Notes: a model not told the origin generated them from the letters alone. A stretch of 64,000 nucleotides of DNA from Longimicrobiales bacterium (GCA_965249725.1 CBDFMQ010000002.1:2688001-2752000), one strand, 5' to 3'. Positions 29,327-50,596 are shown, counted from the stretch's first letter. Made by a program: numbers and translations.

Positions 29327-30043
29327 TTAGTCGAGTCGCTTCACCAGTTTCTTGAGTCCGCGAGTATAGCTCGCGTGTTCCACCTCGAGGTGATGGCGGT
29401 ACGTCTCGTGATAGCGAACGCCTCCGCTCAGATCCTCTTCGGGCGACCGCTTTCTTCGCTTGAGCCAGGGGTTCATCGACCCCCTGCCCCACCCCGAGGC
29501 CAGGTAAAGGGCCATCGCGCGACACTGCCAATGGACGATCCCGAACTGTCCGCTGTCCGGCTGGATCAGCCCGACCACGAAGAGGTTGTCGCGCTCCGGA
29601 TGGAAGACGTGCTTGTAGAGGTGCGGGCGCCCATCCCGCCAATTGAGATGACCCTCGTCCATAAACGGAAACGTGATGAGGTACCCGGTGGCCGAGATGA
29701 GGAGATCGATGGCCTCCGACGTCCCGTCCGAGAAGTGGATTCGATCGCCACCCAGCCGCTCGAGGCCGGGCTTCGGTGTGATCGCTCCGTGCTGCACGAA
29801 GTAGGGCAGGAGCGTATTGACGATGGGGTGCGACTCGAAGAGCCCGTGGTCCGGCTCAGGAAGTCCGAGGTCCTCGTGACGTCCCATGAATAGGCGCAGG
29901 GATATGTTCGCGATGAGCCTCTGCACTCTCATGGGAATCCGAAGGGCGTGCATCAGGCTCGCCACTTGATCCGAGGGCTTACCCCAGAGGTACTTGGGAA
30001 TGTAGTGATAGCTCCTCCGAGTACTGTGGTATGCTGCCTCGGC
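29327..30043 (-). pseudogene. Flavin-containing monooxygenase, 3' half (split by element)
   Basis: AEAAYHSTRRSYHYIPKYLWGKP...ATGY...FPF...LYKHVF. Confidence 0.9.
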
Positions 30044-30553
30044 AGAGTACAGATGCTGTGAATCACGGCAAGGAATCGTCTAAGTTGAACTAGGACTGCA
30101 CGATCTGCCATTCTTGCCGTTGGATCATTTCTGACTCCACCGGATTGAAATAGCCGGGGAAACGGCATCGAATGGCGGGAATCGGGGCGTCCCTTGGCTC
30201 CTGGGGGCGGGGACTCGTCGCGCAAGCCATGGACCACCCGAATCGCCGAATCTGGTTCGGGGCCGTGACAGTGCCCAAAAGAGCTTCCAAGCACGCCCTG
30301 ATACGCCGCCCGGAACCCTCTGTCGTCCCCTACCACCTCCGAAGATCCATCCCCTCGGGACCGGTGCAGGAGCTCGGGCTCACTTGTCGTTGGACGAGAC
30401 TGGGGGTTGCGTCCTCGCCGGTCCGACAGGTTGACTTGAAGTTCAAGACTACCCATCGGACTACCGCCCAGACAGGGAGATACGGGGTCCGATCATCTTG
30501 ACCCCAGGGACGCCTTGGCGTCCCTGTATTCTTGGGGAATCAATCCGGACAAT

Positions 30554-31125
30554 ATGCCCGAGGCAGATCACTCTGCTGATGCTCGCCACCGCGTTCGGGT
30601 GTTCGTCGACTTCTGGAACTACACCCTCCACATGCGGGCCGTTGACGACCCGTTCCGCACGGACTGGTCACAGTTGGGGCCGGTGCTGTCGCGCGCCGCG
30701 GCTGAGGTGGTCGATCCGACCGCGACGGGCGAGTATCAGGGACTGAACTTCTACGGCTCCTACAACCCGGCCAGCGAAACCGACCGACAACTCCACCGAT
30801 GGGCAACGGGAGTCGTGGACACGTTTCCGGGGGTGAAGGTGTCAATAGCTCCCCGGCAGAGGAAGCGTTCGCCACCGGCGTGCCCCAGTTGCCACCAGCG
30901 GCTGACCACATGCCCGTCGATAACTACGACATTGCAGTGCTGGTCTCGTCCGACCGGGACTTCGTGCCCGTGGCCGAATTCCTTGAGACCCGGGGTGTCA
31001 AAGTGATCCATGGTGCCTTCCCGCCGATGGGCTCGCAGCTGACGGCGCGGTGCTGGGGAAGTGTAAACGTCCCACGTCTGCGGGAGAAGTTCCGTTTCAC
31101 CCGGGCAGCACGCGGCGGCACCTGA
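30554..31125 (+). pseudogene. NYN (LabA/DUF88, PIN-like) protein with Zn-ribbon, deletion/frameshift near 30916
   Basis: VFVDFWN...CPSCH..TTCP in one frame and DNYDIAVLVSSDRDFVP...RGVKV in another; the EKGVD segment is missing. Confidence 0.8.
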
Positions 31126-31464
31126 CGGCAGGAACAGAAACCGGGAAGGTCACTTTCCATGCAGGTGGACCCGGCGAGGTCGCCCGAGCGATGAGAGCCC
31201 GGTACGGAGCCGCGGTCCGCCCGGCGGTCGGATCTGACCGGATGGGCGGCTCGCCGCCAAGACGGTCCTCCACCTCCACTTCCGGCTTGCGCGACGGTCG
31301 GCGAACCGCGCCGCGGGAGGCCGCGGCAAGGCCGGAGGTCCCCATGGACGAACGAGGACGCGGCGCAAGCCCTTGTCGGGGAGGCACAGTACCGATGGGG
31401 TAATCCACGGTGCCGTGTGGCAAGGCCGGCGTTTCCGGTCCCGGAATGACGCTCGAGGCGGGGC

Positions 31465-34400
31465 TCAGCGCCGGGCGGGCGGGAGCGCGTCGCCGGCCGC
31501 GCCGAGCCGGCCGCCGAGGGTCAGGCGGTTGCCGAGCGCGGAGCGGCTGAAGGATCCGGTCCAGGCGAAGAGCCGGCCTCCGGGGAGGCGGAGCGCGTAC
31601 TCGCCGCGCGCGTCGAGCGTCCACGGCCCGCCGTCCGCGCGGCCCGGCGGGCGGCGTCCGCGGAGCTGCTCCTCCCACAGCGCGGCGGAGCCCGCCGCGG
31701 GGCCGCCCCAGCGCGGCGACACCGAGAGCGAGAGCCCCTCGGACGACTGGCCGCCGATGCTCAGCGTGACGGCGGCGCCGCGCTCCTCGTATCCCGCGGC
31801 GGAGTGGAGCACCAGGATCCGGCCCCGCGCGTCGATCCTCACCGGGCCGCCCACGGCCCGGAGCCCGCCGGAGACCTCGAGCCCGTTGCCCGTCTGGCCC
31901 GAGCCGCACCGGCGGCGAGAGCTCGAACCCGAGGCGCTGCTGGTCGACCGCCACGGCGTGGCCGTCGACGGACTCGTCGCCCGCTTCGGTCCCGAGCCGA
32001 GCCCATGCGGCGTCGGCGCGGAGCCCGACCCAGTCCGCGAGGCGCCGTCGCACCTCGAGGAGCCCGAACCCGAGCTCGAGCCCGCTCGCGCCCCGCGCGG
32101 CGCCGGACCCGGCCCGCGTGTTCTCGGCCGTGCCCCGGCCGCCGCCCGCCATCGCCCACGCCGACGTGGCCCCGTCCGACCAGCGCAGGTAGGGATGCAC
32201 GGCCGTCAGCCCGGTGGCGAGGCGCCCGCTCGCCGAGCCGGCCCGCCAGTCGCCCGCGCCCTCGCTCCTCGAGACCGCCACGCCGGCCAGCCAGCGCGTC
32301 CCGAGCGCGCGGTCGAGTCCCACGTAGCCCGTGCGCACGTCGCCCTCGTAGCGCCGCTCCGCCGCCGGCCCGCCCACGAACGTCTGGATGTCGCCCTGGC
32401 CCCAGAGCTGCCAGCCGCCGCCTCCGTCCGCCTCCTCCTGCGAGCCGTCCCCGCCGCCGCCCCACGCGAACACGAACTCCGTGCCGCCCATCGGCGCGTC
32501 CCCTCCGAGCCCGCCGAGGCCGTTCAGGCCCAGGCTCGCCGCCAGGTCCGGAGGCGCGGCCGGGCCGTCCGGGCCGCGGGCCGCGCCCGCCGCCCAGTCC
32601 GCCAGCCGCCGCTCGGCCGTCCGCCTTGCCTCCGCGAGGCCACCGCCCGACAGGACGCGCGACCCCGCCCAGCCCGCCAGCAGCGCCTCCGCCGCCTCCC
32701 GCGCCGCCGACTTGCCCAGCGGCACCGAACGCCCCATCACCGTCAGCCGCGACCCGCGGCCCGGACGGCCCGGCCCCACCCGCCGTCCCAGCGTCATCCG
32801 CGCGCTCGCCAGGTGCGAACGCGCCATCGCCGCCAGCGTCTCCTCGACCGCCACGCGCACGATGCGGTTGCCCACCCCCACCGCGAACGTCTGCGTGGCC
32901 GCGAGCCCGCCCGGATCGCGCGCCGTCACCACGACCGCCACCGACACCGACGCCGAGCCGCCCCGGCCGTCGGAAACCCGTACGCGGATCGTGTAGCCGC
33001 CCGCCCCGGCCGGCGCCGTCCAGCGTGCCGCCGCCCCGTCGGTCGCCCCCGCGAAGCTGCCCCGCGGCGCGCTCCAGGCGTACGCCAGCGTGTCGCCGTC
33101 CGGGTCCGTCGCCGTCGCCGTCAGCCGCACCTCGCCGCCCGGAGCCACCGCGCACGGGTCGCACGACGCCGACACGGCGGGCGGCCGGTTCGTCCCGCCT
33201 CCGCCGCCGCCTCCGCCTCCGCCTCCGTCGTCGTCCGCGATCGTCACCGTCACCGAGGACGGGCTGCCCGCCCGCACCGTCGAGGGCAGCGCGCCCAGCG
33301 CCACCGTGAACGTCTCGTCGTCCGTGTCCGCGTCCTGCGCCGTCGTCACCGTCCCCGTGCCGCTCGTCGCGCCCGAGCTGATCGTGATGCTCGCGAGCGC
33401 ACCGTGGTCGCCCGCCTCCGCCGTGCCCCGCGTCAGCGTCACCGGGATCATCACGTTGCCCGACAGCGCCGCCGACAGCCGCGCCGTCACCGTCACCGGC
33501 GAGCCCTCCGCCACCGGGTTCGGCGCCGCCGATAGCCGCACCGCGGGGGTCGTCCCGCCCTCGTCGTCGGTGATCGTGAGCGTCTTGTCTCCCGGGTTTC
33601 CCACCCCGCCGCCGCTCGCCGTCCCGGACACCGTGACCGTCTTGTCCGGGGCGTCGATCGCGTTGTTCACCGCCGTGATCGTCACCGTCCCGGCGCTCGC
33701 CGTCTGGCCCGCCGCGATGGTCAGCACCTTGTTGTTCGAGAGCGTGAAGTCGCCCGGCAACGCCGGGGAGACCGCGGCCGCCGCGACGGTCACCGTCACC
33801 GCCGCGCTCGACGCGGCCGACAGCGTCGCCGTCACCGTGCTCGCCCCGCCGTTCTCCGAGATCGAGGCCGGGCTCAGCGTCAGGGTCACCGTGGGCGTCC
33901 CGTCGTCGTCGGTGATCGTGAGCGTCTTGTCTCCCGGGTTCCCCACCCCGCCGCCGCTCGCCGTCCCGGACACCGTGACCGTCTTGTCCGGGGCGTCGAT
34001 CGCGTTGTTCACCGCCGTGATCGTCACCGTCCCGGCGCTCGCCGTCTGGCCCGCCGCGATGGTCAGCACCTTGTTGTTCGAGAGCGTGAAGTCGCCCGGC
34101 AACGCCGGGGAGACCGCGGCCGCCGCGACGGTCACCGTCACCGCCGCGCTCGACGCGGCCGACAGCGTCGCCGTCACCGTGCTCGCCCCGCCGTTCTCCG
34201 AGATCGAGGCCGGGCTCAGCGTCAGGGTCACCGTGGGCGTCCCGTCGTCGTCGGTGATCGTGAGCGTCTTGTCTCCCGGGTTCCCCACCCCGCCGCCGCT
34301 CGCCGTCCCGGACACCGTGACCGTCTTGTCCGGGGCGTCGATCGCGTTGTTCACCGCCGTGATCGTCACCGTCCCGGCGCTCGCCGTCTGGCCCGCCGCG

Positions 34401-35443
34401 ATGGTCAGCACCTTGTTGTTCGAGAGCGTGAAGTCGCCCGGCAACGCCGGGGAGACCGCGGCCGCCGCGACGGTCACCGTCACCGCCGCGCTCGACGCGG
34501 CCGACAGCGTCGCCGTCACCGTGCTCGCCCCGCCGTTCTCCGAGATCGAGGCCGGGCTCAGCGTCAGGCTCACCGTGGGCGGCGGCGGCGCGCGCGTCAC
34601 CGTCACCGTGTAGGTCTTCGTCGCGATGCCGTCCTCGGCCGTCACCACGGCCTGGATGGCGTTGGCGCCCTCGTCGAGCGCGATGGCCTGGCTCGCCGAG
34701 CCGTTGGCCACCGTCATCAGATTGCCGTTGCCGGTCTTGCCCACCTGGACCGTCGCGTTGTCCTTGGCCGCCGCCGGCGTCAGCTTCACGTGGGTGACGT
34801 TGTTGGCCACCGTCTCCACCGCCGCGTAGGTCGTGGTGGTCGCGGCGAAGCGCCCTAACAGCAGCACCGAGTACGTGCCGTCGGCGCTCGTGCTGCTCCT
34901 CACGGTCAGACTGCTCAGGTTGGCGTTCGAGGACTGGGGGGCCTGGTCACAGGAAGACCCGATGCTCAGCGAGATCATGTCGCCGTCGGACCATGACACG
35001 GTGGTAGCCCACGCGAAGCGAGATGACCCGATGGCCGCTAAATTAAACGCGGTCGAGCCGACGCAGAAATTCAGGTTTTCGAAGTGACCAAGCGGACTTT
35101 TGTCAAAATTAACCTGGAGGACGCCATTTCCGATATACACCGCTTCGATCCGAAACTCGAGGGCATGTACTGTGAGATCATTGTCCGAGAGCGCTAAGGA
35201 GCAATTGTCCTGCTGGTGGTCATCGTCGTCGCAGCCTGCGAATAATGTCCCACTTTGGGCAGTGACCGTATCCACGGTCAAAGTGGCGGACCAGATGGCG
35301 GTGGTCTGCGCCGCGGCCGGAGCGGGGTTGAGTAGGGAGAGCGCCCCGAGGACGAGGACCGTCAGCGCACCCGCAAGCGTCGGCGGGCGGGACGGCCGAC
35401 GGCGGTGGCGCCCGGGACGCGCGTCAGGCCGGGAGGCGGCCAT
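31465..35443 (-). pseudogene. Autotransporter adhesin (cadherin-like, Calx-beta-like repeats, PKD-like, beta-barrel); frameshift near 31900
   Basis: Signal peptide, VTAEDGIATKTYTVTVTR, TITDDD repeats, WGQGDIQTF barrel; barrel continues GQTGNGLEVSGG in another frame. Confidence 0.8.
33561..34581. repeat. Three near-identical 342-bp (114-aa) tandem repeats
   Basis: Units start at 33561, 33903 and 34245; only isolated nucleotide differences. Confidence 0.95.
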
Positions 35444-35909
35444 CGAAGGGGCCGGTCGATGCGGCCCGCCCCGCCGCCGGGCGCACCCTCTCGGCTCGGC
35501 TCGGCTCGGCTCGAACTAACGATGTGGTGCCGTCATGTTGGCATCGTGTCAAGTACCTTCGCGGCATGGGGGGTGTTGCGATGCGGGAACCGTTCGGCCG
35601 GGATTTCCGTTCCACGCTCCGGATGTTCTCATCCAATACCCTGACAACCAACCTACCCGCGACCCGATCCCGGTCAAGGATCGGCCCGGCGGCGGACGTC
35701 GTCGGGCGAAAGCACTCGGCTCGAGGCCCAGCTCCTTCTCCAACTCGCTTTCGAGTTTGAGACGGCCTCGTTCTCTTCCTGCCGGGCATTCATTGCATAC
35801 GCGACTCGCGAGATCCCGGCTCTTGATGGCGAGCCTTCCGGTCCAGTCATCGGCGGGCGCCTCTCGTGCGGCAATGGAGGGGAACGAACCCGAGGTTGCC
35901 TGAGACCCG

Positions 35910-36122
35910 TCAAGCCGGCATCAGGCGCTCGCCCTTGGGCTCCGGCACGGCTCGTCCCAATTCCTGTGCCCTGTCGATCCAGAACTGTATTGCTTCCTTG
36001 ACGTTCCCCAGCGCGGTCTCCTGATCGGCTCCGTGCGCCATGCACCCGGGCAACTCGGGCGCCTCGGCGACGAAGGCCTGATCTTCGTTGCTCCAGTAGA
36101 GAATGATCTCGTATTTGTGCAT
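35910..36122 (-). CDS. hicB: HicB family antitoxin
   Basis: FVAEAPELPGCMAHG...EAIQFW..PEP. Confidence 0.9.
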   Translation of the reverse strand: MHKYEIILYWSNEDQAFVAEAPELPGCMAHGADQETALGNVKEAIQFWIDRAQELGRAVPEPKGERLMPA

Positions 36123-36376
36123 CAGTGGTCGCCTCCCAGTTTGTATTTGAGGATCAACCGCCGAACCTGCCTCACCTGATAGGGCTTGGCGTGCCCGCCG
36201 CGGCTTTGCAGGTTGACGATGTCAACGACGCCTTCCTTGTCGAAGAGGTGGTGGCTGCCCCGGACTCGCTCCTCGAATCCAAGATACCGCATCGGGGCGC
36301 GCAGTTCGTCGAAGCGGATGTTCGCGTCCGACCGTCCGCGGAGTATCGTCTCCACCAGCCGCTCGTGCCGACCCAT
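36122..36376 (-). CDS. hicA: HicA family toxin
   Basis: IRFDELR..LGF...RGSHHLF...AKPYQVRQV; stop overlaps the hicB start. Confidence 0.88.
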   Translation of the reverse strand: MGRHERLVETILRGRSDANIRFDELRAPMRYLGFEERVRGSHHLFDKEGVVDIVNLQSRGGHAKPYQVRQVRRLILKYKLGGDH

Positions 36377-36379
36377 GGG

Positions 36380-36540
36380 CTATCGGCGGATCCGCACTAG
36401 CCGACCGGAGCGGGCCAGGCGCAAGAGTGCCTGATTCACAGCCCACGGCACCCGAGGCGAAGCAGAGCGACCGGGGAGATCGGCGTGACGTCCGGGGAGC
36501 CCTCCGCATACTCCGTGATCCGCTCGGTTAGGCTGTTCAT
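36380..36540 (-). pseudogene. Remnant of AbiEi-like (DUF6088-type) antitoxin N-terminus
   Basis: MNSLTERITEYAEG..TPISPVALLRLG, frameshift, then AVNQALLRLARSGRLVRI*. Confidence 0.6.
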
Positions 36541-36779
36541 GCCTTCGCTCTCCGCGTCGGGAATCGTTCGACCAACATAACGCCGTCCTCCGAGGAGCAC
36601 CCGGCTTCGGGCCGGTGGAGAGTGCTCGCCGCGCGCATCCGTGGACGGCGTTCGAAGGAACCCGCCGAATCGCTCTTTAGTCGCGCGTTCGGAACCTGCC
36701 GCTCCGGGCAGACGATTCCAAGACTGTCCTCCACGCGCCGCCCCAACCGGTCGAGTTCCCTTTCCCCCGGCGGGGCGTC

Positions 36780-37529
36780 CCCGTCGCCGAGGAGGGCGAG
36801 GACCGGATACCCCGGCTCCGCGCGCGGGTGCGGCACACGACGGTGATCGTGCTACCGGCCGACGAGCGGATCCTCGACTTCGTGGCCGGCGACTCGGAGT
36901 ACTGGCACCTGACGGGCGCGGCCAACGTCGCGTACCTGAAGCCCCTGGCCGAGGACGCGGCGACGAACATCGCGCTCGTCTGCGAGTCGGGCCGCATCTA
37001 CTCGTTCCTGGTCGCCGAGCACGGCGAGGAGCCGCCACACCTGGTCGTCCGGGTCGATCCGGGCGCCGAGGCGGCGGGCGCATCCGGCGCTCCCGGGTTC
37101 GTCGCCCGGAGCGAGGTCGCGGCCTACCGTGAGATGGCGGCCCAAGCCGCCGATGCCGCGCGCTCGGCGCGCGAGGAGGCCGAGGCGGGCATCGTCGAAG
37201 CGCGTGAGCAGGCGCAAGCGGAGATCGAGGCGTTCCGGGCCTCCTATCCCGGCCGGCTCGCGTTCGAGTACCGGCTGGACGGGAAGGCGAAGGATCGTCC
37301 GTTCCTCATCGAGGCGATGTGGCACGACGGGCGGTTCACCTACATCCGCTCGCGCGCCCAGGAGTCGCCGGCGCTCTACGAACTGGAGGACGGCGAGCCG
37401 AGCCTGGTCGCGTTCGACCTCGCCGAGGACGGCCTCTACATCGCACGCCGCGTGCTGGGCGACGGGTGGCTCCGGATCGGCGACAAGCGGGCGCGCTGGC
37501 GGTTCACGCCCGGGGAAGCGCTCCGATGA
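36780..37529 (+). pseudogene. VirB9/TrbG-like T4SS protein lacking signal peptide and native start
   Basis: RHTTVIVLP, AYLKP, TNIAL, WHDGRFTYI, PALYE; upstream in-frame stop at 36678 and no signal peptide. Confidence 0.75.
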
Positions 37530-38785
37530 GCCGCTGGAAGCAGTTGGTGAAGCAGCCGAAGGGCGCGCTGCCGGGCGGCATCGTGACGAAGGCCGGGATC
37601 GTGCTGATCGCCGTGCTCGTCGGCGGCATGCTCTTCTCGTCGTCGCTCACGGGTCCCGAGGACGATGCGGCCCTTCCCGGAACCCAAGCGGAGCCGCGGG
37701 CGGTGGACGGCCGCGCGGGCCGCGCGTTCGAGGGCCGCCTCCGCGCGGAAGCGGAGCGTCACACCCAGCAGGCGGCGGTCGAGGCCCGAGCCGACCTTGC
37801 GGACCGGCAAGCCGCCGCCGCCGAGGAGGCCCTGGCCGAGGCGGAAGGCGCGGCGGTGAACCGGGCGGCCGGAATCGGCGGCGCCGAGTTCGAGCTTCGC
37901 GAGACGGTCCGGCTCGAGGAGATCGAACGCCGGACGCGCTCGCTCCGCTCGCTTCCCGTCGCGCAGTCGCACCGGGATCCCGGACAGGCCCGGAACGGCG
38001 CCGGACCGGCGAGCGGCGATACGGTTGACCGGGAACCGGAGTTCCTCGATCGCGCTCTCGAAGAGACGCTCGCGTCCTTCGAGCGGTCGCTGGCGGCACT
38101 CGAGGGCGAGATCGAGACCGGGCTGGCGAGCGGGGAGTTCCCGGCCGCCTCCCCGGGGGCTTCACCGCCAAGCTCTCGCCGCGCGCCCGGCACGGCCGAG
38201 CCGGGCCGGAGCGTCCGTGCGGAAGACCCGCCGGGCTGGGAACGGATCCGCGAGGGCTCGTTCCTCGAGGCCGTGCTGCTGACGCAGCTCTCGGGCGAGT
38301 TCCCCGGCCCCGTGCTCGCCATGGTGTCGGTACCGATGTATTCGGCCGACCGCCAGCGGGTGCTGATCCCGCGCGGCGCGCGCGTCGGCGGCGCGGCCCG
38401 GGCCGTCCAGGACCGGGACCAGAGCCGGCTCGCGGTCGCGTTCCACCGGCTGCTGCTGCCCGGCGGCAGCTGGATCGACCTCGAGTTCGCGGGGCTGAAC
38501 CAGGCGGGCGAGGGCGCGCTCAAGGACCAGGTGAGCCGCCACTACTTCTCGACGTTCGCGGCCGCCGGCGCCGTAGGCGCGCTGAGCGGACTCACGCTGG
38601 CCGGAGCCTCGCCCTACGGACTACGGGCCGGCGTCGGACAGGGGCTCGGCAACAGCGCCACCTCGATCCTCGACCGGTTCCTCAACCGGATGCCCGCCAT
38701 CACGATCCGCGCCGGCCACCGCCTGCGCATCTGGCTCACCTCCGATGTCCTGGTCCCGAGGCCCGGGACCACGCCGATCAACTGA
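37526..38785 (+). CDS. VirB10/TrbI-like protein
   Basis: N-terminal TM, GSFLEAVL, VLIPRGA, RLAVAFHRL, PAITIRAGHR. Confidence 0.85.
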   Translation: MSRWKQLVKQPKGALPGGIVTKAGIVLIAVLVGGMLFSSSLTGPEDDAALPGTQAEPRAVDGRAGRAFEGRLRAEAERHTQQAAVEARADLADRQAAAAEEALAEAEGAAVNRAAGIGGAEFELRETVRLEEIERRTRSLRSLPVAQSHRDPGQARNGAGPASGDTVDREPEFLDRALEETLASFERSLAALEGEIETGLASGEFPAASPGASPPSSRRAPGTAEPGRSVRAEDPPGWERIREGSFLEAVLLTQLSGEFPGPVLAMVSVPMYSADRQRVLIPRGARVGGAARAVQDRDQSRLAVAFHRLLLPGGSWIDLEFAGLNQAGEGALKDQVSRHYFSTFAAAGAVGALSGLTLAGASPYGLRAGVGQGLGNSATSILDRFLNRMPAITIRAGHRLRIWLTSDVLVPRPGTTPIN

Positions 38786-38804
38786 CCCCAAGGAGAACAC
38801 CATC

Positions 38805-39707: not shown

Positions 39708-39725
39708 GCGAGGTGAGCGTTCGCA

Positions 39726-40715: not shown

Positions 40716-40735
40716 AGCCCAAGGAGATGCCGCCA

Positions 40736-41404
40736 ATGAAACGAGACCGCCATGCGGGCCGCGAGTACGCCGAGATCTGGGCCGAGGCGGTCCACGCGAA
40801 CCGGAGGCTGCGGACGATCCTGATCTTCCTCTCGGCAAGCTGCGTCCTGCTCGCCGTGATCCTGCTGCGGATCGCGGGCGCCGAGCCGCCCAGGCCCATC
40901 GTGGTCCGCGTAGACGAGGTCGGCCGCGCCGAGGCGCTCGCGTACGAGGCCGCAACCGCCCAGGCCGATCCGCTCGATCCGACGACCAAGTACTTCCTCA
41001 ACAGGTTCGTCCACGACTTCCACTCGCGCCGCCGAGCCACCGTCGAGGAGCAGTGGACCCGGAGCCTTCGGTTCCTGTCGACCGAACTCGCGAACGCCGC
41101 GTTCCAGCGGGACGGCGCGGAGGTCGCAAGCGTGGCGGCCGGGACCGCCGACACCGAGCTCCAGGTCGAGCAGGTCGTGCTCCGCATCCATCCGTCTCCC
41201 GAGCCGCCCCACGGCGCGACGGCAGACTTCGACCTCGTGCACCTCCGGGACGGACAGGAGATCCGGCGCGAGCGCTGGTCGCTCACGCTCCGGTTCGAGT
41301 TCCTCAGGTCCATCCCGCGCGAGCTGGTCGTCCACAACCCGATGGGCATCCTCGTCACCTACCTACAGGCCGACCAAGCGCTCGTGACGGAGGACTCGAG
41401 GTGA
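40736..41404 (+). CDS. VirB8/TrbF-like protein
   Basis: Single TM, PIVVRVDEVGRA, NPMGILVT. Confidence 0.85.
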   Translation: MKRDRHAGREYAEIWAEAVHANRRLRTILIFLSASCVLLAVILLRIAGAEPPRPIVVRVDEVGRAEALAYEAATAQADPLDPTTKYFLNRFVHDFHSRRRATVEEQWTRSLRFLSTELANAAFQRDGAEVASVAAGTADTELQVEQVVLRIHPSPEPPHGATADFDLVHLRDGQEIRRERWSLTLRFEFLRSIPRELVVHNPMGILVTYLQADQALVTEDSR

Positions 41405-42318
41405 TCGCCCATCTGAAGGGACGCGAGAAGGCGCTCGAGTCCTTGGGCTGGACGGGACGCAGGGCCGAGTGGATCGCGCTCGTATGCCTGCACAGCGGCG
41501 TGTTCACCCGCGCGCAACTCACCGATGGGCTCCGCATCCACCGCCGCACGGCCCGCCGGTTCGTCCGAGCCATGATGGTTCGGAAGCTCGCGGTAGAGGA
41601 GACGCTGCACGGCCGGAAGGTCTGCCGGATCTTCGCCCGCCCGGTCTACCGGGCGCTCGGTGCCGAGCACATCCGCCATCGCAGGACCGCCTCCGAGGAA
41701 GTGCTCATGCGCCGTCTCCTCTCGCTCGACTACGTGATCGAGCAAACGGGCCTGCCGTGGCTCCCGACCGAGTCCGAAAAGGTAGCCGCGTTCGAGGCGC
41801 TCGGCATCGAGCGCAGCATCCTGCCCGTCCGCGTGTACCGGGGCGCCGCAGGCGAGACGCGGCGCTACTTCCCCCTCAAGCTGCCCGTCGCGCTTGACGG
41901 TCGGGGCGCGGTGTTCGTCTACGCCGATACGGGCCACGAGACCGCCGCGGGGCTCCGCTCCTGGGGCCACGCGCACCGCGGACTCTGGGGCGCGCTCAGG
42001 GAGCGGGGCCGGCCGGTAGAGGCCGTCGCCACCGTGCGCACCCAACCGGAACTTGCACGGGCTCGGAAGGTCCTCGGGCACTGGGCCGAGGCACCGACCG
42101 ATCCGCATCCCGCCGACCCGGCCCGCCGCGAGATCGCCCGGATCGAGCGGTCGATCCGCGACATGGACGACGCGGCGGTCGAGAGGTACGGCGGCCTCCA
42201 GGGCTGCTTGATACGGATCGTCGAACTCGAGGAACTGCTGCGATCCGCCCGCCCCGGAACGGCGATCGACGGGTTCGCCGCATGGCGTTCGAGCCGGCTT
42301 CGCGGGGGCCTGTTTTGA
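41401..42318 (+). CDS. Element-encoded hypothetical protein with N-terminal wHTH-like region
   Basis: GTG start overlapping the virB8 stop; LVCLHSGVFTRAQ, RRLLSLDYV, YFPLKLPV. Confidence 0.7.
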   Translation: MIAHLKGREKALESLGWTGRRAEWIALVCLHSGVFTRAQLTDGLRIHRRTARRFVRAMMVRKLAVEETLHGRKVCRIFARPVYRALGAEHIRHRRTASEEVLMRRLLSLDYVIEQTGLPWLPTESEKVAAFEALGIERSILPVRVYRGAAGETRRYFPLKLPVALDGRGAVFVYADTGHETAAGLRSWGHAHRGLWGALRERGRPVEAVATVRTQPELARARKVLGHWAEAPTDPHPADPARREIARIERSIRDMDDAAVERYGGLQGCLIRIVELEELLRSARPGTAIDGFAAWRSSRLRGGLF

Positions 42319-42495
42319 GCGCCGGATCGCCGGGTGCCGGGGACCTGCGGCGAGTGCCCATCCGACATCGGGGGCGTGCGGACACGGAATCGCCCTTCCA
42401 AAGGACACGCCGCCGGTTGTGCATGTCGCTGGACGGCTTGCGGTTGCGCCACGGCCACCGGAGCGTGCGTGGCACGCGGGAGCCGGCGACCGTGG

Positions 42496-42589
42496 CCGGA
42501 GCGACCCCCCTCTTTGGATGCCTGGCGTGGCATCGGGGAGGATCGGCATGGGACACCCCCATGCCGTCCTCCGCGGGGGGTCGCTCCGG
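42496..42589. other. Nested inverted repeats, candidate oriT
   Basis: Perfect 15-bp IR ccggagcgacccccc / ggggggtcgctccgg enclosing a second ~15-bp hairpin (42536-42572). Confidence 0.5.
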
Positions 42590-42622
42590 GCCAGCGATCC
42601 CTACGGGAAGGTTGTCGGACCG

Positions 42623-44662
42623 ATGAGGCCCTGGACGCTCGTCCTCATCGGCGTGGCCGTGGTCGCGGTCGCGGTCCGCGCCTTCCTCGAGCCGTTCCCG
42701 GACATCGGCGGGAACTCCGTGCTGGACCTGATCGCCTACCACGATCCGGGCCTGCATGCCGTGATTCGCGTCTGGTACTACGCGGCGCCAGCCGTCGCCT
42801 TGCTGCTCGCCGGCAGCGTCTGCCTCTCGGTCACGAGGGTCTGGCTCGAGCCGCGTACCCGGCGCGGCGCTCGCGGGAAGCTTCCCGCCTGGCCCACCTC
42901 GGCCAGGGACGAGGCGCCCTCGCTCGTGATCGGCGAACTGCATCATCCGACCGTGCCGCGCGAGAGCGAGCGGCCCTCCTGGCTCGTCGTCCCCGAGAAG
43001 GGGCTCTACACCGGCGTCCTCATCGTGGGTGCCGTCGGCACCGGCAAGACCACCGCCTGCATGTATCCGTTCGCCCGCCAGATCCTCTCCTGGCGGGCGG
43101 ACGATCCCGGCCGCAGGGCGGGCGCGCTGGTGCTCGAAGTCAAGGGGGATTTCTGCCACCAGGTCCGCGGCATCCTCGAGGACGCCGGCCGCGGGGACGA
43201 CTACCTCGAGATCGGGCTCGGCGGCTCCTGGCAGTGGAACCCGCTCGACGATCCGCTGCTCGATTCCTACTCGCTCGCCTATGGCGTCGCCTCCCTCATC
43301 AACCAGCTCTTCGGCAAGAGTAGAGAACCGTTCTGGCAACAGGCGTACACGAACCTCGTGCGCTGGATCGTGGAGCTGCACCGGCTCCTGCCGGGGGGCT
43401 GGGTCACGCTCCGGGACATCTACCGCTGCACCGTGGACGCGGAGTTGTTCGCGGGGAAGATCGGCGAGGCCCGCGAGATGGCCGACAGGATCTCTCCGGT
43501 GGACGCCGTCATCTCCAGCGACGACATGATCGCCCATGCGGAGGCGCTCAAGAAGTGGGACTGGGCGCCGGTGCCCGGCACTGAACAGGTGCGCTGCCGG
43601 ATGGACGCGGAGCTTCGGGCGCAGCTCGCGAAGCACGAAGTCGCATGCGAAGTGGAAGCGGCCGGGGGAGGCGCGGGCGGCGAGTTCAGGCAGCAGGTCG
43701 AGGCCATCGAGCGGTGGTACCTGCACGACTGGACGGTGCTCGACGCCAAGCTCCGCACCTCGATCGTCGAGGGCATCAGCGTCTTCCTCTCGCTGTTCGA
43801 CGAGCCGCAGGTCGCCGGCGTGTTCTGCCCGCCGCCACCGGCTGAGGAGGAGCCGCCGGCTGAAGCTACGCCGGACGAGAGCGACGACACCGAAGGCGCT
43901 GGCTATCCCGTGCCGGGGCTCCGGCGCCGACTGCCGCCGCTCGCCGATCTGATCGAAGACGGCAAGGTCCTCGCGCTCAACATGCCCGCTGGCGCGAACC
44001 CCGCGCTCGCCCGCGCCATCGGCGTGCTGCTCAAGAACGCGTGGATGCAGGCGCTGCTCCGGCGGCCCGCCGAGGCCGCGCGCCGGCCCGAACGCTACCT
44101 GCGGCCCGCCGTGTTCATCTGCGACGAATACCAGGCGTTCGCCACCGTCGGGCAGGACAACCCTTCGGGCGACGAGAAGGCGTTCGCGCTCACGCGCCAG
44201 TGCCGCTGCATACCGATCGTCGCCACGCAGTCGATCTCCTCGCTCCGCTCCGTGCTGCCCTCGGGCGAGGCTTGGCGCACGCTCGTCCAGACGCTCCGCA
44301 CCCGGATCTTCCTGTCGCTCTCCGATGAGGCGTCGGCGCGGGTCGCGTCCGAGATGTGCGGCACCGTCATGAAGACGCAGGCCTCCTACACGTTCACCGA
44401 GAACACGGGCCGGCCCGAGTTCTCGCTCCTCTCCGGACGCGCCGGAGGCGGACGCGGCACGATCGGCGCGAGCAAGTCGTTCCGCCAATCGAGGGAGCCG
44501 GTGTTCACGCCCCGCGAGTTCTCGCTGCTCGCCAACTACCAGGCGATCTGCCTGCCGTATGACGGGGTCGTGTCGCTCCCCGCGCGGCGCGTCTACCTCA
44601 AGCCCCACTACTTGCCGAAGGAGACCGGCTACTGGCGGCTCCGCGAGGAGGGCCGGATATGA
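42623..44662 (+). CDS. Type IV coupling protein (VirD4/TraD-like)
   Basis: Two N-terminal TMs, Walker A GAVGTGKT, LEVKGD, FICDEYQ, VATQS. Confidence 0.9.
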   Translation: MRPWTLVLIGVAVVAVAVRAFLEPFPDIGGNSVLDLIAYHDPGLHAVIRVWYYAAPAVALLLAGSVCLSVTRVWLEPRTRRGARGKLPAWPTSARDEAPSLVIGELHHPTVPRESERPSWLVVPEKGLYTGVLIVGAVGTGKTTACMYPFARQILSWRADDPGRRAGALVLEVKGDFCHQVRGILEDAGRGDDYLEIGLGGSWQWNPLDDPLLDSYSLAYGVASLINQLFGKSREPFWQQAYTNLVRWIVELHRLLPGGWVTLRDIYRCTVDAELFAGKIGEAREMADRISPVDAVISSDDMIAHAEALKKWDWAPVPGTEQVRCRMDAELRAQLAKHEVACEVEAAGGGAGGEFRQQVEAIERWYLHDWTVLDAKLRTSIVEGISVFLSLFDEPQVAGVFCPPPPAEEEPPAEATPDESDDTEGAGYPVPGLRRRLPPLADLIEDGKVLALNMPAGANPALARAIGVLLKNAWMQALLRRPAEAARRPERYLRPAVFICDEYQAFATVGQDNPSGDEKAFALTRQCRCIPIVATQSISSLRSVLPSGEAWRTLVQTLRTRIFLSLSDEASARVASEMCGTVMKTQASYTFTENTGRPEFSLLSGRAGGGRGTIGASKSFRQSREPVFTPREFSLLANYQAICLPYDGVVSLPARRVYLKPHYLPKETGYWRLREEGRI

Positions 44663-45669
44663 AGCGCGCGAGCGGCGTCGGCCACCTCACTCCGTTCCTC
44701 CCGGGCCTTGGAGCCCTGCTCGATGACCCGGAGGTCTCCGAGATCATGATCAACGGACCCGGCAACGTCTGGGTCGAGCGAGGGGGCCGCCTCGAGCCCC
44801 ACGAGGCGCCCGGGCTCACCGCCGCCTGGCTCCACCGCGCCGCGATCCACATCGCCCGGCCGCTCGGGCTCGATCCCGCCGCGAGGCCCATCCTCGACGC
44901 CCGGCTCAGCGACGGATCCCGGGTCGCCATCTGCACCCCGCCCGCGGCGCCCGAGGTCGCCATCACCATCCGCCGGTTCGGGGGCCGGGCGTTCTCGCCC
45001 GAGGACTTGGTGCGCATGGGCTCGCTGCCGGAGGCGGTCCTCCGGTCCGCCCGCACCACGCTTGCGTCCCGCAGGAACATCCTCGTCTCCGGGGGAACCG
45101 GCTCGGGCAAGACCACTCTGCTGAACGCGCTGATCGAACTGCTGCCCGAGGACGAGCGGATCGTCGCCATCGAGGACACGCTCGAACTCAGGATCGACCG
45201 CGCGAACTGCGTCCGCTTCGAGGCCGGGGCCATCGGCTCGGAAGCACCCGTATCGATCCGCGACCTGGTGCGGCACGCGCTCCGCCACCGCCCCGACCAC
45301 ATCGTCGTCGGCGAGGTCAGGGGCGCCGAGGCCGCCGACCTGCTCCAGGCGCTCAACACCGGGCACGGCGGATCGCTCACGACCGTGCACGCGAACAACG
45401 CGCGCTCCGCGCTCTCGCGCCTGGCGAGCTGCGCCATGCAGGCCGAGGGCGCGCTTCCCTGGGAGGTCACCTGCCGGGGCGTGGTCGACGGCATCTCGCT
45501 CGTGCTCCACATCACCCGGCAACGAGGCAGACGGTTCGTCGAGGAGGCCATCCAAGTCCAGGGCTACGACGCGGCCACCGGCCGCTGGATCACCGAACCG
45601 ATATCGGGCGGGGCGGCGAAGCCCCGGAAGAAGGAACAGACCCACACACCGAAGGAGGTGAACGCATGA
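44659..45669 (+). CDS. VirB11/CpaF family ATPase
   Basis: SEIMING, GGTGSGKTT, IEDTLEL, RPDHIVVGEVRG, NTGHGG. Confidence 0.92.
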   Translation: MKRASGVGHLTPFLPGLGALLDDPEVSEIMINGPGNVWVERGGRLEPHEAPGLTAAWLHRAAIHIARPLGLDPAARPILDARLSDGSRVAICTPPAAPEVAITIRRFGGRAFSPEDLVRMGSLPEAVLRSARTTLASRRNILVSGGTGSGKTTLLNALIELLPEDERIVAIEDTLELRIDRANCVRFEAGAIGSEAPVSIRDLVRHALRHRPDHIVVGEVRGAEAADLLQALNTGHGGSLTTVHANNARSALSRLASCAMQAEGALPWEVTCRGVVDGISLVLHITRQRGRRFVEEAIQVQGYDAATGRWITEPISGGAAKPRKKEQTHTPKEVNA

Positions 45670-45863
45670 CGGGCAACGACAGCACCATCCGCGTCGAGAC
45701 GTTCGAGGACTTCGACCGCGAGCTCGCGCGCGACGGCCGCGAGACGCTCGAGGTCCCGGCCTACCTGGCCGAGCAGTACGGCCTCTTCCGCGAGGAGGTC
45801 GGGAGCGAGGAAGACATCTTGGGCGCCGGCGGCGATCCGCACGGGGAGGTGGTGGACCGATGA
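45666..45863 (+). CDS. Small acidic hypothetical protein
   Basis: ATGA-coupled on both sides; RBS AAGGAGG. Confidence 0.6.
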   Translation: MTGNDSTIRVETFEDFDRELARDGRETLEVPAYLAEQYGLFREEVGSEEDILGAGGDPHGEVVDR

Positions 45864-46888
45864 AGCACGACGAATACCACCGCAAGTTCGCCGACCGGGT
45901 CATCGAGCAGATCCGGCAGGGCACCGCGCCCTGGCAGAAGCCCTGGGCGCCGGGCGAGCGCGTGCTCCCCGCCAACGTGGACACCGACCGCTCCTATCGT
46001 GGCGGCAACAGCCTGCACCTCGCCGCCGTCCAGCAGGAGCGCGGCTATGGCGACGTGCGCTGGGGCACCTACCGCCAGATCCAGGCCCGGGGCGGACAGG
46101 TCAGGAAGGGCGAGACCGGCACCCGCATCCTCTCTTTTCAGGATCACAAGCGGACCCAAGTCACCGACGAGCGCGGACGGCCCAGGAGGGACGCCGAGGG
46201 CAAGCGCGTCTACCGCTACGAACGCCTCGAGGCGCCGTTCGTGCGCCAGTACACCGTGTTCAACGCCGAGCAGGCCGACGGGCTGCCCGCGCGGTCCACC
46301 CCGACGCCCGAGCCGCTCTGGAAGACCCACCAGGAGGCCGAACGGGTGCTCGAGGACAGCGGGGTCCCCGTCCGTCACGTGGCCGGCGACCGCGCCTTCT
46401 ACCACCTGAACCGCGACGAGATCATCCTCCCCGAACGGGTGCAGTTCCCCTCGGCCAACCACTACTACCAGACGGCGCTCCACGAGCTGGGGCACAGCAC
46501 CGGCCACCCGGAGCGGATGAACCGCGAGACGCTCGTCGAAGGGATCAAGACCGGGTTCGGCTCGCCCGACTACGCGAAGGAGGAACTGAGGGCCGAGATC
46601 AGCGCCATGATGACGGGCGAGCGCGTCGGCGTCGGGCACGACCCGAGCCGGGGCGCCGCCTACGTCGAGGGCTGGATCGCCGCGCTCGAGGAGGATCCCC
46701 GCGAGATCCGGCGCGCCGCGGCCGACGCGCAGAGGATCTCCGACTTCGTGCTCGTTCGGCACATCGAGCGCGAGGCCGCACGGGATCCCGTGGCCGTGGC
46801 CGCGTCCCGCACGCCCGGACCTCAGCGGACCCAAGTACCCGTGCCGCCGCTCCCGACGCCCGAACGCAGCTCCGGGCCGAGCCGCTGA
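45860..46888 (+). CDS. ardC: ArdC-like ssDNA-binding antirestriction protein
   Basis: APWQKPW, YRGGN, WGTYRQ, VRKGE, VFNAEQ, HELGHSTGH, YAKEELRAE. Confidence 0.9.
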   Translation: MKHDEYHRKFADRVIEQIRQGTAPWQKPWAPGERVLPANVDTDRSYRGGNSLHLAAVQQERGYGDVRWGTYRQIQARGGQVRKGETGTRILSFQDHKRTQVTDERGRPRRDAEGKRVYRYERLEAPFVRQYTVFNAEQADGLPARSTPTPEPLWKTHQEAERVLEDSGVPVRHVAGDRAFYHLNRDEIILPERVQFPSANHYYQTALHELGHSTGHPERMNRETLVEGIKTGFGSPDYAKEELRAEISAMMTGERVGVGHDPSRGAAYVEGWIAALEEDPREIRRAAADAQRISDFVLVRHIEREAARDPVAVAASRTPGPQRTQVPVPPLPTPERSSGPSR

Positions 46889-46894
46889 GGACCG

Positions 46895-47794
46895 ATGAGA
46901 GGTAGGGAGATGTTCGACCGCACGGTCGAGGAGGACCCCCGTTCCGCCGCGCCACCCAGCCGCGAGAAGCATCACATGCGAAACGGCCATCGTCGAGAAT
47001 ACGCCGCGAGCCGGGACGGCGGGTCCATCTCCTTCACCGAACGGTGCGCCCGCGGACTTGCCGACATCGGCGTCTACGGCGCCGTCTCCTACCGCGACCT
47101 CGCCGAAGCCCGCTTCGGCGGCCATCCCCACACCACCCGGCGGGCCGTGAACGCCTGGATCCGGGAAGGGATCGTCGCGGAGACCCGGGCCACCGGACCC
47201 GGGGGCAACCCGTTCAAGATCCTGACCCTTACGCGCAAAGGCGTGGCCGACGCCCGCGAGCGGGCCGCCGAATGGGGGATGGATCCCGGCCAGGAAATGC
47301 GGTACGCACACACCCGGCCCGCCCAAGCCGCGCACGACACCGCCGTCTATCGCGCTTGCAGGGAGGAGCAGCAACGCCTCCACGCAGAGGGCGCCACCGT
47401 GCGGCGCATCCGCCTCGACGCCGAACTCAAGAGCGCCGTCGCGCGCGGGAGCGAGGCCGCGCGGAAGAAGGACGGGAAGCGGGCCGCCGACGCCGAACGG
47501 CACAGGATCGCCCGCGAGCTCGGCCTCCCCCTCGACGACGAGGGCCGCGTGCTCCACCCGGATGCGCAGATCGAGTACACCGATGCCGAAGGCCGGACCG
47601 GCCGCGTCAACATCGAGGCCGTCTCCGGCAACTACCGCGAACCGGCAGTCCGCGCCAAGGCCGCCGCCGGGTTCGCGCTCCACGCCAACGGGCCGGCGGC
47701 CGGGAAACTCCTCGGCAAGCTCGGCCTGGGCGGCGACGGCGGATCCTGGCTGCGCGGACCGGCCGACCGCGACCCGACCGCCGTCGAACTCTGA
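46895..47794 (+). CDS. Replication-relaxation (Replic_Relax/MOBC-like) protein, putative relaxase
   Basis: wHTH-like N-terminus ending LTLTRKG, AAHDTAVY, HPDAQIEY...NIE; start uncertain. Confidence 0.6.
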   Translation: MRGREMFDRTVEEDPRSAAPPSREKHHMRNGHRREYAASRDGGSISFTERCARGLADIGVYGAVSYRDLAEARFGGHPHTTRRAVNAWIREGIVAETRATGPGGNPFKILTLTRKGVADARERAAEWGMDPGQEMRYAHTRPAQAAHDTAVYRACREEQQRLHAEGATVRRIRLDAELKSAVARGSEAARKKDGKRAADAERHRIARELGLPLDDEGRVLHPDAQIEYTDAEGRTGRVNIEAVSGNYREPAVRAKAAAGFALHANGPAAGKLLGKLGLGGDGGSWLRGPADRDPTAVEL

Positions 47795-47815
47795 CGACCC
47801 GGAGGACTTTAGCCC

Positions 47816-48130
47816 ATGCAGCCTTGGAAGATCAGCGCGGGACTCACCGCCGCAATCGCCGGGACCACCTTCCTCCTCGGCGGCTCCCGCCTCGAATACT
47901 TGTCGCCGTTCTGGCCGGTCATCCTCGCCGATCACGGCGTCCTGCTCTCCCTCCACCTCGCGTTCGCGCTCGCAACCGTCGCGGCCGCCATCTACGCCGT
48001 CGCGCGCGCCACCGGGCTCGCCGACCTCGGGCGCCGCGTCGATCTCGCCGAACGGTCCGTGCGGCGCGGCCAGGGGGATACGGGCCTCACCGAAGCGCTC
48101 CGCAGGGACGCCGAAGGCGACTGGGACTGA
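47816..48130 (+). CDS. Small membrane protein
   Basis: Two hydrophobic segments, coding-like composition. Confidence 0.6.
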   Translation: MQPWKISAGLTAAIAGTTFLLGGSRLEYLSPFWPVILADHGVLLSLHLAFALATVAAAIYAVARATGLADLGRRVDLAERSVRRGQGDTGLTEALRRDAEGDWD

Positions 48131-48136
48131 ACGCGC

Positions 48137-48526
48137 ATGAGTGACCGAACGTCCGTCGAGACACTGCCCGCCAACTGGCGCAGGCACGCCAAGGCGCTCC
48201 GGCGCTACGGGGGCGAAACTCCGGCCACCGCGCTCGAAAGCTGCGCCGCCGAACTCGAAGCCACGCTCGTCGAGAGGGACGAGACCACCTTCTCGCTGGT
48301 CGAGGCCGCCCATGAGAGCGGCTACTCCTCCGACCACCTCGGGCGCTTGGTGCGAGACGGCAAGATCCCCAACGCCGGAAGGCCCGGCGCGCCCAAGATC
48401 GCCCGCAGCCACCTGCCACGGAAGGCACAAGCACCAGCCGAGCCGCCACTGGCGGAGCAGTCACGCCGACGCGACGTTTCAAACGTGCAGATCGTGCAGT
48501 CCATCATCGAAAAAGGAATCGAATGA
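48137..48526 (+). CDS. HTH protein, putative excisionase/regulator
   Basis: SLVEAAHESGYSSDHLGRLVRDGKIP; overlaps the integrase start. Confidence 0.7.
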   Translation: MSDRTSVETLPANWRRHAKALRRYGGETPATALESCAAELEATLVERDETTFSLVEAAHESGYSSDHLGRLVRDGKIPNAGRPGAPKIARSHLPRKAQAPAEPPLAEQSRRRDVSNVQIVQSIIEKGIE

Positions 48527-49686
48527 TGGCACGCACGAAACGAAGCCAGCGCAGCTACGCCGCTGGCGAATGGGGCCGGAACCGGGTGAGGGTCTTTCCC
48601 GATCCCAAGACCGGCTTGTTCCAGATCGAGTGGCGCGACAACGGGCGCAGGCTGAGCAGGTCGCTGAAGCACCGCGACTGGAGGCAGGCGAGGAGGCAGG
48701 CGGACGAGTTCGCCGCAGGATTCGCCGGGCCGGAGCTGAACGGCAAGAAGAACGCCGAGCCCGAGCCGCTCACGCTGAAGACGCTTTTTGACATCTACGG
48801 TGAAGAGGTGACGCCCACCAAGCGTGGGCAGTCGCGGCTGCACGACAGGGCCGCGATGAGGATGTTCCTCGGGTGCTTCGGCAGGGACCGGAAGCCCGCA
48901 ACGCTCTCCCAGCGCGACTGGGACCGGTTCATCCGGGAGCGGCGGGCGGGCAGGGTTGGCCCGAGCGGCAAACCCGTGTCCGACCGGATGATCGAACGGG
49001 ACCTGAAGTTCCTGCTCGCGGTCCTCAACTGGGCCGTGAAGTCGAGGGACGAGCGGGGTGAACTGCTCCTCGGCTCGAACCCGCTCAAGGGCCTGAAGAC
49101 GCCCACGGAGAAGAACCCGACACGGGTGATGCTTACCGAGGAAGAATACGGGGTCCTGCTCCACGTGTCTCTGGAGATGGACTGGCGCTTTCACGTTGCT
49201 CTGGTCCTCGCCCACGAGACAGGACACCGCATCGGCGCCATCCGTCAGCTTCAATGGTCGGACATCGACCTTGAATGCGGAGTGGTGCGGTGGCGCGCAG
49301 AGCACGACAAGTCGGGCTACGAGCACCGGACGCCGGTCACCACCGAGGCGCTCGCCGCCTTGGAGGAGGCGCGAAAGAGGAACCCCGTGACCGGACACAC
49401 TCTCGTGCTGCCCTCGCCGCAGGATCCGTCGAGGTGCGTGGGCTCCTGTCAGGCGCGCGGCTGGTGGCAAAAAGCGGAGCGGCTCGCGGGGCTTGAACCT
49501 AAGCGTGGGAGGGGCTGGCACTCCCTGAGACGGAAGTTCGCCTCCGACCTCATGGACCAGCCGCTCAAGGTGCTCTGCGAACTCGGCGGCTGGAAGGAGG
49601 CCAAGACGGTGCTGCACTGCTACCAGCGGGCCGACGAGGCACAGCTCAGGAAGGCTCTGGAGAGCCGACGCAGAGTTCGCGCCTGA
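48523..49686 (+). CDS. Tyrosine recombinase/integrase
   Basis: TGHR, DKSG, WHSLRR, GGW, CY catalytic set; adjacent to the right att site. Confidence 0.92.
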   Translation: MMARTKRSQRSYAAGEWGRNRVRVFPDPKTGLFQIEWRDNGRRLSRSLKHRDWRQARRQADEFAAGFAGPELNGKKNAEPEPLTLKTLFDIYGEEVTPTKRGQSRLHDRAAMRMFLGCFGRDRKPATLSQRDWDRFIRERRAGRVGPSGKPVSDRMIERDLKFLLAVLNWAVKSRDERGELLLGSNPLKGLKTPTEKNPTRVMLTEEEYGVLLHVSLEMDWRFHVALVLAHETGHRIGAIRQLQWSDIDLECGVVRWRAEHDKSGYEHRTPVTTEALAALEEARKRNPVTGHTLVLPSPQDPSRCVGSCQARGWWQKAERLAGLEPKRGRGWHSLRRKFASDLMDQPLKVLCELGGWKEAKTVLHCYQRADEAQLRKALESRRRVRA

Positions 49687-49779
49687 GGCCAATCAGCGGG
49701 AATCAATCGGCGGGAATCCGGTCCGGTATGCCCGTAAGTTCAATTACCCCAATCAGATACGAATCTGTCTACTTCTACC

Positions 49780-50411
49780 GCCTCGGCCTTGTGCGCAGCC
49801 TCCACCACGATGTCGCAGCCCGAGTTCCCTCCACCCACGACCAGAACCCGCTTACCAAGCAGGATCTCGGAGACCTTGTAGTCCGCTGAGTGCATCACCT
49901 CGCCATCGAAGGTCCCGGGATACTCGGGCACGATGGGGTCACGGTTGTGTCCGTTGGCAATGACGAGTGCGCCATAGAGACGGCCCTCCCCACCAGCCAA
50001 CGTGACCTCCCAACACGGGTCCCCGGTCGGTCCAGTCGACGAAGCCGGTTCCACGCGCTCCACCTCCGCCCCGTACTCGATGAGGGGCCCGAGCTCGAAG
50101 TGTTCTGCGTAGCCTCTCAGATAGGCGAGGATCTCCGTGTGGTGTGGGTAGTCCGCATACGCATCCGGCATGGGATAGTCCGGAAACTCGGTCCCGGGCT
50201 TCGACGAGATGGTGTGTGTCGATCGGTAGACACGCGCCACCGGCAACGGGTAGTTCCAGTTCCCGCCGAGGTCGTCGCATGCCTCGAGGATATCGACCTC
50301 GAGGCCGACCTCGCGGAGGTTGCGGGCTGCGGCGAGCCCGGAGCTCCCGGCTCCGATCACACAGACTCGGTCGCTTCTGTCCGAGAATTCTCCACTTGGT
50401 GACATGGGCAT
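49780..50411 (-). pseudogene. Flavin-containing monooxygenase, 5' half
   Basis: VIGAGSSG, LGGNW, FDGEVMHSADYK, VVGGGNSGCD; homology ends at AHKAEA. Confidence 0.92.
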
Positions 50412-50596
50412 ATCTTACTCGTTGGACACTCCTCCGCCACCGCTCCGACTCGCTATCGGCCCTGTTCGCAGAACACGAGGAGAGCGGGGTGGTGCGGATG
50501 ACGTACGAAACGAATGTCTACTACGGTCGTCTGGAGTTGGACTGACGCCTCGACGATACGATCACGCCAGGATTGGTGAGCAACCTACCGCCGCGG

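Follow-up and report, generated by a model that had tools for sequence, protein, structure and literature searches.

We analysed a 64,000-nucleotide stretch of DNA from a Longimicrobiales bacterium (GCA_965249725.1, CBDFMQ010000002.1:2688001-2752000; hereafter the window), in which a flavin monooxygenase (FMO) gene is split by an integrated element of 19,744 bp. The element is of the tyrosine-integrase type and is seated in a duplicated 8-bp core within the gene. We consider it likely that a crippled element of low specificity has recently, and probably repeatedly, inserted into a dispensable gene here, and that the arrangement is not a purpose-built switch. An earlier note on this DNA had described the split by a 19.7-kb element and suggested an unusual non-tRNA attachment site (attB) and a possible excision-controlled switch of the skin/comK type. 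The split was borne out by the analyses below, while the unusual character of the site and the switch were not.

The split FMO gene and its alleles

The core, GCCTCGGC, forms an 8-bp direct repeat (30036-30043 and 49780-49787) with no extension possible on either side. When the 19,744 bp were removed, the parts of 709 and 632 nt rejoined in a frame of 1341 nt with 446 codons and a single terminal stop, so that recomputation reproduced the core and the product length previously claimed. Both halves matched the Pfam FMO-like family PF00743, and no second FMO copy was found in the same genome. The 8-mer occurs 26 times in the window and the repeat alone is therefore within chance. In contrast, the in-frame rejoining is beyond chance because an intact FMO identical at 446/446 residues to the rejoined frame is encoded by another public assembly (P0121), on a 2.47-Mb contig distinct from the three contigs of this genome, and because a genome of the same genus (G002) carries an intact, 87% identical gene between the same flanks. 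Read across the junction, the 5′ half gives a 223-aa product ending at 49740. On the other side, an in-frame TAG is located at 30080-30082, the stretch from this TAG to the core contains one CTG and no ATG, GTG or TTG start, and a promoter scan of the left junction found no promoter. The element thus supplies no replacement start and the gene is off while it is integrated, as had been proposed.

Alignment of the element family placed the true overlap at 7 bp (30035-30041 and 49779-49785), one base to the left of the 8-bp repeat, and the integrase works with this 7-bp overlap, which lies between two short core sites in inverted orientation. The two overlap copies are identical at 6/7 positions. 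The T/C mismatch at the remaining position is a wobble base in an Ala codon, and the same protein results from either recombination outcome. The predicted exact restoration on excision consequently holds for the protein, and exactness of this kind follows from how conservative site-specific recombination works.

Filled and intact alleles coexist among near-identical strains. Two other assemblies (P0141 and P0143) encode the 223-aa truncation with the same 210 host residues and differing tails; the three filled alleles therefore present three element-end variants, and the intact P0121 shares the identical 5′ half. Across these alleles, the 12 codons supplied by the element contain two amino-acid changes and the 210 host codons contain none. 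We also compared assembled contigs from 4 of 24 listed runs with positions 44700-51200; this genome may itself derive from one of these runs. RNA runs, with shares of 0.07-0.24, were left out of the comparison. The contig across the 5′ half extended into the element by 22 letters in run X14 and by 2 in run X1, indicating a filled site (weakly in X1). In runs X9 and X3 it departed from the reference exactly at 49780 and continued at host depth with non-reference sequence of 1,252 and 137 letters, apparently revealing an empty FMO site. Host DNA across the four runs differed by 0-1 letters. Assembled contigs lose rare variants and thus do not resolve mixed states within one sample, and read depth across the element sums many organisms and is not a copy number. 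A joint between 46183 and 49768 in run X1 was discounted as coincidental. Filled and apparently empty strains have almost the same host DNA and three element-end variants exist, so the FMO site is a recent, probably recurrent landing spot; that the insertions were independent is deduced from the protein tails of P0141 and P0143.

Further conservation analyses showed that neither the site nor the gene is constant among relatives. The AEA residues at the site were present in 13/33 homologues with at least 65% identity. Close FMO orthologues were detected in 3/41 related genomes and in 4/20 element-bearing genomes, two of them intact and two broken (G060 and G047), and none was found in the same-genus genome G001. 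In another lineage, a seven-member cluster carries an FMO truncated to 340-357 aa on long contigs. Relatives therefore shed this FMO through ordinary mutations. Among 51 short homologue representatives found, 50 were examined and one, from this species' cluster, had an element-coded tail. A metagenome scan for the FMO yielded 12 loci, none above 76% identity across a full half. The ratio of nonsynonymous to synonymous substitutions (dN/dS), suggested earlier as a check on the halves, was 0.076 for the whole FMO against G002 (0.088 and 0.066 per half, dS ~1) and 0.25 against G010. With dS ~1 these values reflect the time before the insertion, which is far younger, and they were rejected as a test of the switch, which they leave undecided. 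The insertion is likewise too recent for tests of selection. The best solved relatives of the FMO are 8z12-8z17 ('Flavin-dependent monooxygenase', E 1e-69), followed by ancestral FMOs, and no paper behind PDB 8Z12 was found. Like class B flavin-containing monooxygenases (PF00743), the product has both dinucleotide-binding motifs and the FMO-like profile; unlike them, it has no NCBIfam equivalog at cut-off.

Targets of the integrase family and the tRNA relic

A scan of species genomes returned at least 511 relatives of the integrase, and the best 80 (70-90% identical) were analysed. Nearly all were titled Longimicrobiales or Gemmatimonadota, from genomes that we take to come from sponges. The family is multicopy, with left ends in 10/11 genomes searched and up to 40 in one. 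An FMO was found within 10 kb of the integrase in 0/80 of these relatives. Right ends consist of a 13-bp motif, exactly 35 bp and then a 7-bp spacer where host DNA starts, an arrangement that was mapped in 74/80. Mapping by the 13-bp arm motif alone placed 66/80 right ends in 54 host flanks with 28 spacers, up to five of them perhaps one base out of register. Pfam matches were obtained in 28/128 flank frames and covered about 20 families, including IstB, P4-type integrases, Fpg, rhodanese, DctM, propellers and methylases, with no FMO among them. Frequent host targets were IS256, IS21 (IstB) or P4-type integrase genes. Left ends with the spacer type of the FMO site lie in IS256 transposase and IstB genes in differing reading frames, and another target stretch of this type is presumably the end of P4-type integrases, again in different frames. 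The ten relatives with at least 84% identity occupied an Fpg/MutM gene, IstB, P4-type integrases and other sites, never an FMO. The proposed comparison of insertion sites of homologous integrases therefore revealed no specificity for the FMO. Only 1/80 adjoined a tRNA, the other 79 lying elsewhere with many different 7-mers.

Each sub-lineage has its own 7-mer, found at many unrelated sites sharing that 7-mer. Spacers largely tracked the integrase tree (partial rows L035 and L049 ignored), in which one clade (support 0.98) joined this integrase, the tRNA-Ile sibling of its own genome and four other spacers. In genomes G044 and G046, three plausible left/right pairs had spacers identical at 7/7 positions and two head-to-tail junctions also had identical spacers, as expected of lambda-type overlap homology; four further same-spacer matches joined distant or opposite ends and were counted as non-cognate. 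The 7-mer of the FMO site is present at 3,692 sites in the genome under study, 89 of which equal or beat the FMO site in their match to the element core arms, and the FMO site is thus among the better target matches in this genome. A stricter end-motif census of this genome missed known left ends and no counts were based on it. Genome G044 carries an intact FMO with a perfect but empty site, and four left ends of the same spacer elsewhere. As to whether the attB is unusual, insertion in coding sequence is common, with 43.4% of mapped islands located there in one survey (PMC12424338), and this family uses dozens of coding sites. No published description of the integrase family was found in the literature searched; the survey of Mageeney et al. 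2020 and its supplements, which lay outside that search, may list the clade.

Several other features of the family were observed. A rhodanese-domain gene was the repeated target of one spacer type in six loci (L022, L032, L039, L040, L043 and L057) and is a better dedicated-site candidate than the FMO. In L008, L054, L058, L076, L069 and L078, family members were inserted within their siblings' own integrase or coupling-protein genes. Matching spacers on separate contigs with unmatched neighbouring ends (L079/L109 and L062/L008, G047) correspond to hybrid elements, whose target genes (one dctM) are separated, and simple excision could no longer restore them.

No tRNA is present within the window. 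In members located at tRNA-Ile and Ala-/Pro-type tRNA sequences, the spacer is the anticodon loop and the 35 bp are the tRNA 3′ half. A tRNA profile built from 36 tRNAs of the genome under study gave 44 distinct non-tRNA ends a score of -11.5 in register versus -34.6 to -58.5 in 24 shifted registers; non-tRNA ends reached -8.6 versus -42.8 for shuffles, and real tRNAs +33. As the ends are mutually related, this gap is not a probability, and protein-binding constraint could contribute to it. In this unrooted comparison, the family probably descends from integrators of tRNA loops, and its 7-bp targets would since have diversified by drift. The FMO site was also considered as a secondary site of the tRNA-Ile integrase, an idea that was dropped, the element having its own spacer type and no tRNA replacement.

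Regarding the tRNA loci themselves, a sibling (integrase 78% identical) adjoins the only tRNA-Ile(GAT) of the genome under study (G000:C3:1704169-1705463). Pieces of the tRNA-Ile 3′ part are located at C3:1940913, 2827819 and 2302027, two of them followed by a family left end and one of these two 235 kb off in opposite orientation, which suggests rearrangement between family copies. At L063:11224-11298, an element occupies the tRNA-Ile anticodon loop in reversed orientation, with the tRNA 5′ half in the 35-bp slot. Finally, 19 tRNA calls on one strand, three Pro(CGG) calls included, were found within 2.8 kb at G000:C3:1903222-1906030.

Gene content of the element

The features of the locus are listed in Table 1. 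The integrase conserves R236, K263, H333, R336, W357 and Y367, read from the translation and picked with what we take to be the tyrosine-integrase catalytic motif, in agreement with the intact residues claimed before. The decay of cargo and transfer genes described in the earlier note was confirmed in part. Two cargo genes (the NYN gene and the adhesin-like gene, presumably an autotransporter) are in broken frames in the assembly, there is no virB4, and the N-terminal 34 residues of VirB9 are absent relative to the sibling on contig C2; however, 12/13 core frames match siblings at full length in a single frame. The C2 sibling has an 824-aa VirB4-like gene (P-loop_TraG) before a 287-aa VirB9. 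The profile PF03135 gave VirB4 matches in 0/5 genomes, and the VirB4-like gene of the family scores with PF19044 instead. Because virB4 is missing and virB9 is clipped, the element alone is not self-transmissible: it carries the integrase, the probable excision factor and the attachment ends of an integrative and conjugative element (ICE), without a complete mating-pair set including VirB4. The coupling protein is backed by Pfam and the probable relaxase by an atlas lead at 0.90.

Table 1. Features of the split FMO locus and of the integrated element (window coordinates)
Feature	Position	Strand	Evidence and remarks
FMO 3′ half, codons 211-446 + stop	29327..30035	-	PF00743 E 1.6e-16; identical to P0121 residues 212-446
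Left junction (attL)	30035..30043		7-bp overlap 30035-30041, host T at position 1; 8-bp repeat 30036-30043
Conserved left end of element family, probable arm-type sites	30044..30190	+	Matches in 10/11 genomes; 3 more copies in same genome
NYN-domain cargo gene, two overlapping frames	30515..31125	+	PF01936 on second piece only; assembly error possible
Large surface/adhesin-like cargo gene, frame broken near 3′ end	31097..35443	-	Cadherin-like, Calx-beta, PKD; three 345-bp repeats
hicA-hicB toxin-antitoxin pair	35910..36376	-	PF07927 weak, E 3.9e-4, below cut-off; PF15919 E 1.8e-9
virB9-like, 5′ truncated	36777..37529	+	PF03524; matches only residues 35-287 of C2 sibling's VirB9; no virB4 upstream
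virB10 (TrbI), unnamed 320-aa gene, virB6 (TrbL), virB8	37319..41404	+	PF03743, PF04610, PF04335; full length versus siblings
Unnamed 305-aa gene, coupling protein (VirD4-like), VirB11-like ATPase	41401..45669	+	PF10412, PF12696, PF00437; NF045973, TIGR02788 below cut-off
ardC, probable relaxase (Replic_Relax-like), conserved 104-aa gene	45860..48130	+	PF08401/PF18818; relaxase from atlas lead PF13814, score 0.90, lead only
Helix-turn-helix (HTH) protein, probable excisionase	48137..48526	+	Atlas neighbours HTH_17, 'putative excisionase' 0.84-0.97; beside integrase in siblings
Tyrosine integrase, 387 aa	48523..49686	+	PF00589 E 7.9e-17; relatives 70-90% identical
Right end: 13-bp arm motif, then 35 bp like worn tRNA 3′ half	49731..49778	+	Fixed 35-bp spacing, shared by members at tRNAs and by others; tRNA profile peak at register 0
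Right junction (attR)	49779..49787		7-bp overlap 49779-49785; 8-bp repeat 49780-49787
FMO 5′ half, 210 codons	49780..50411	-	PF00743 E 7.5e-38; same truncated product in two other assemblies

The transfer module of the C2 sibling (G000:C2:25688-38148) contains the only VirB4-like gene of the genome, with no integrase match nearby, and could serve other family copies in trans. A 12-bp left-end motif (30093-30104) recurs inverted at 48480-48491, at the end of the HTH gene and just before the integrase start, and likewise in a sibling; this copy is possibly an integrase arm site for autoregulation.

Readings of the FMO insertion and significance of the family

Altogether, we propose that a partly defective ICE of a multicopy, low-specificity Longimicrobiales (Gemmatimonadota) family landed recently in a dispensable FMO gene through what would be ordinary lambda-type conservative recombination. 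Excision by the integrase and the HTH protein would return an identical protein, the lone overlap mismatch being synonymous. Sibling elements would have entered the site repeatedly, the element would persist since FMO loss costs little and not through its use as a switch, and transfer would require virB4/virB9 from the C2 sibling.

Some points weigh against this proposal. At least three assemblies and apparently 2/4 runs have the site filled, which exceeds one random hit among ~90-150 comparable sites. A switch can originate from a hotspot, and repeated occupancy is what an incipient switch looks like. The integrase and the HTH gene are intact though transfer is crippled, as in domesticated elements. 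In assembled contigs, a circle or an empty-site junction within one sample was neither seen nor ruled out, and it is from protein tails that the insertions are judged independent.

The element shares traits with several known systems. Tn916 tolerates unlike coupling sequences. Elements of the Tn916 type combine a tyrosine integrase with an excisionase, use many sites per genome with an AT-rich preference and may hit coding sequence (PMC5812530). The element resembles them in these enzymes, in the many sites per genome and in its coding-sequence landings; unlike them, it has GC-rich targets and spacers, cognate ends sharing a 7-bp spacer (7/7 in plausible cognate pairs, 6/7 here), a tRNA-like relic and a VirB-type transfer module with ArdC. 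In phage mv4, specificity is set by a 7-bp strand-exchange region between two core sites, as stated in a preprint (bioRxiv 10.1101/2023.11.06.565760). The family shares with such lambda-like anticodon-loop integrators two core sites around a 7-bp overlap, and some members use exactly the anticodon loop, whereas 79 of the best 80 relatives do not lie at a tRNA. An overlap equal to the anticodon loop, with the tRNA restored, was found in siblings only, while this element retains a relic of the geometry.

Among the alternatives, a single ancestral insertion that is now effectively dead, excising poorly, inherited by several strains and with its end variants produced by later recombination with siblings, is unlikely. 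It would agree with the T/C overlap mismatch (eight other listed left ends of this spacer type carry C), with the loss of virB4 and with the recombination between siblings that leaves hybrid elements. However, neither drift nor homologous exchange readily explains why the 12 element codons hold two changes, one only 2 bp away from the overlap, when the 210 host codons hold none. In addition, the integrase is intact and 6/7 overlap bases match.

An excision-controlled switch, in which the host would keep the element in the FMO and turn the enzyme on by regulated excision, is quite unlikely. In active lysogeny, an element inside a gene undergoes stimulus-dependent precise excision that restores the gene (PMC13492144). 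Like skin-sigK, SPbeta-spsM, the comK prophage and SpyCIM1, the element interrupts a gene that precise excision restores; exact restoration, the missing substitute start, the undamaged halves, an integrase and HTH protein kept intact while transfer was lost, and a repeatedly occupied site with both states in the species would all suit a switch. Those systems differ in that excision responds to a stimulus or stage and the element occupies a single dedicated site within a gene that the host needs. Here the integrase is not dedicated to the FMO, the split form is confined to this species' cluster, the site is not conserved, relatives have lost the gene or carry it broken, nothing pointed to regulation and recency accounts for the undamaged halves. 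It is similarly doubtful that the FMO site is a high-turnover slot whose traffic of sibling elements is used as a reversible enzyme switch, recruited from a promiscuous tRNA-derived family with its target reset by a 7-bp spacer change. A dedicated FMO-targeting integrase with a new specific attB, comparable to the dusA- and comM-associated integrases, could explain several filled alleles at exactly the same codon but is highly improbable given the ten closest relatives outside FMO genes and the perfect, empty site of G044.

The recent insertion favoured here makes the FMO locus by itself an ordinary, reversible knockout, and cautions against taking exact in-frame restoration, by itself, as evidence for regulatory switching. 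The wider value lies in the family, in which members of a single integrase lineage range from specialists of tRNA loops to dozens of variants that differ in their 7-bp spacer and hit protein genes, with a tRNA relic kept in their ends. These elements constitute a natural series for the long-standing question of how an integrase acquires a new target, and a candidate for integration that is reprogrammed through the spacer.

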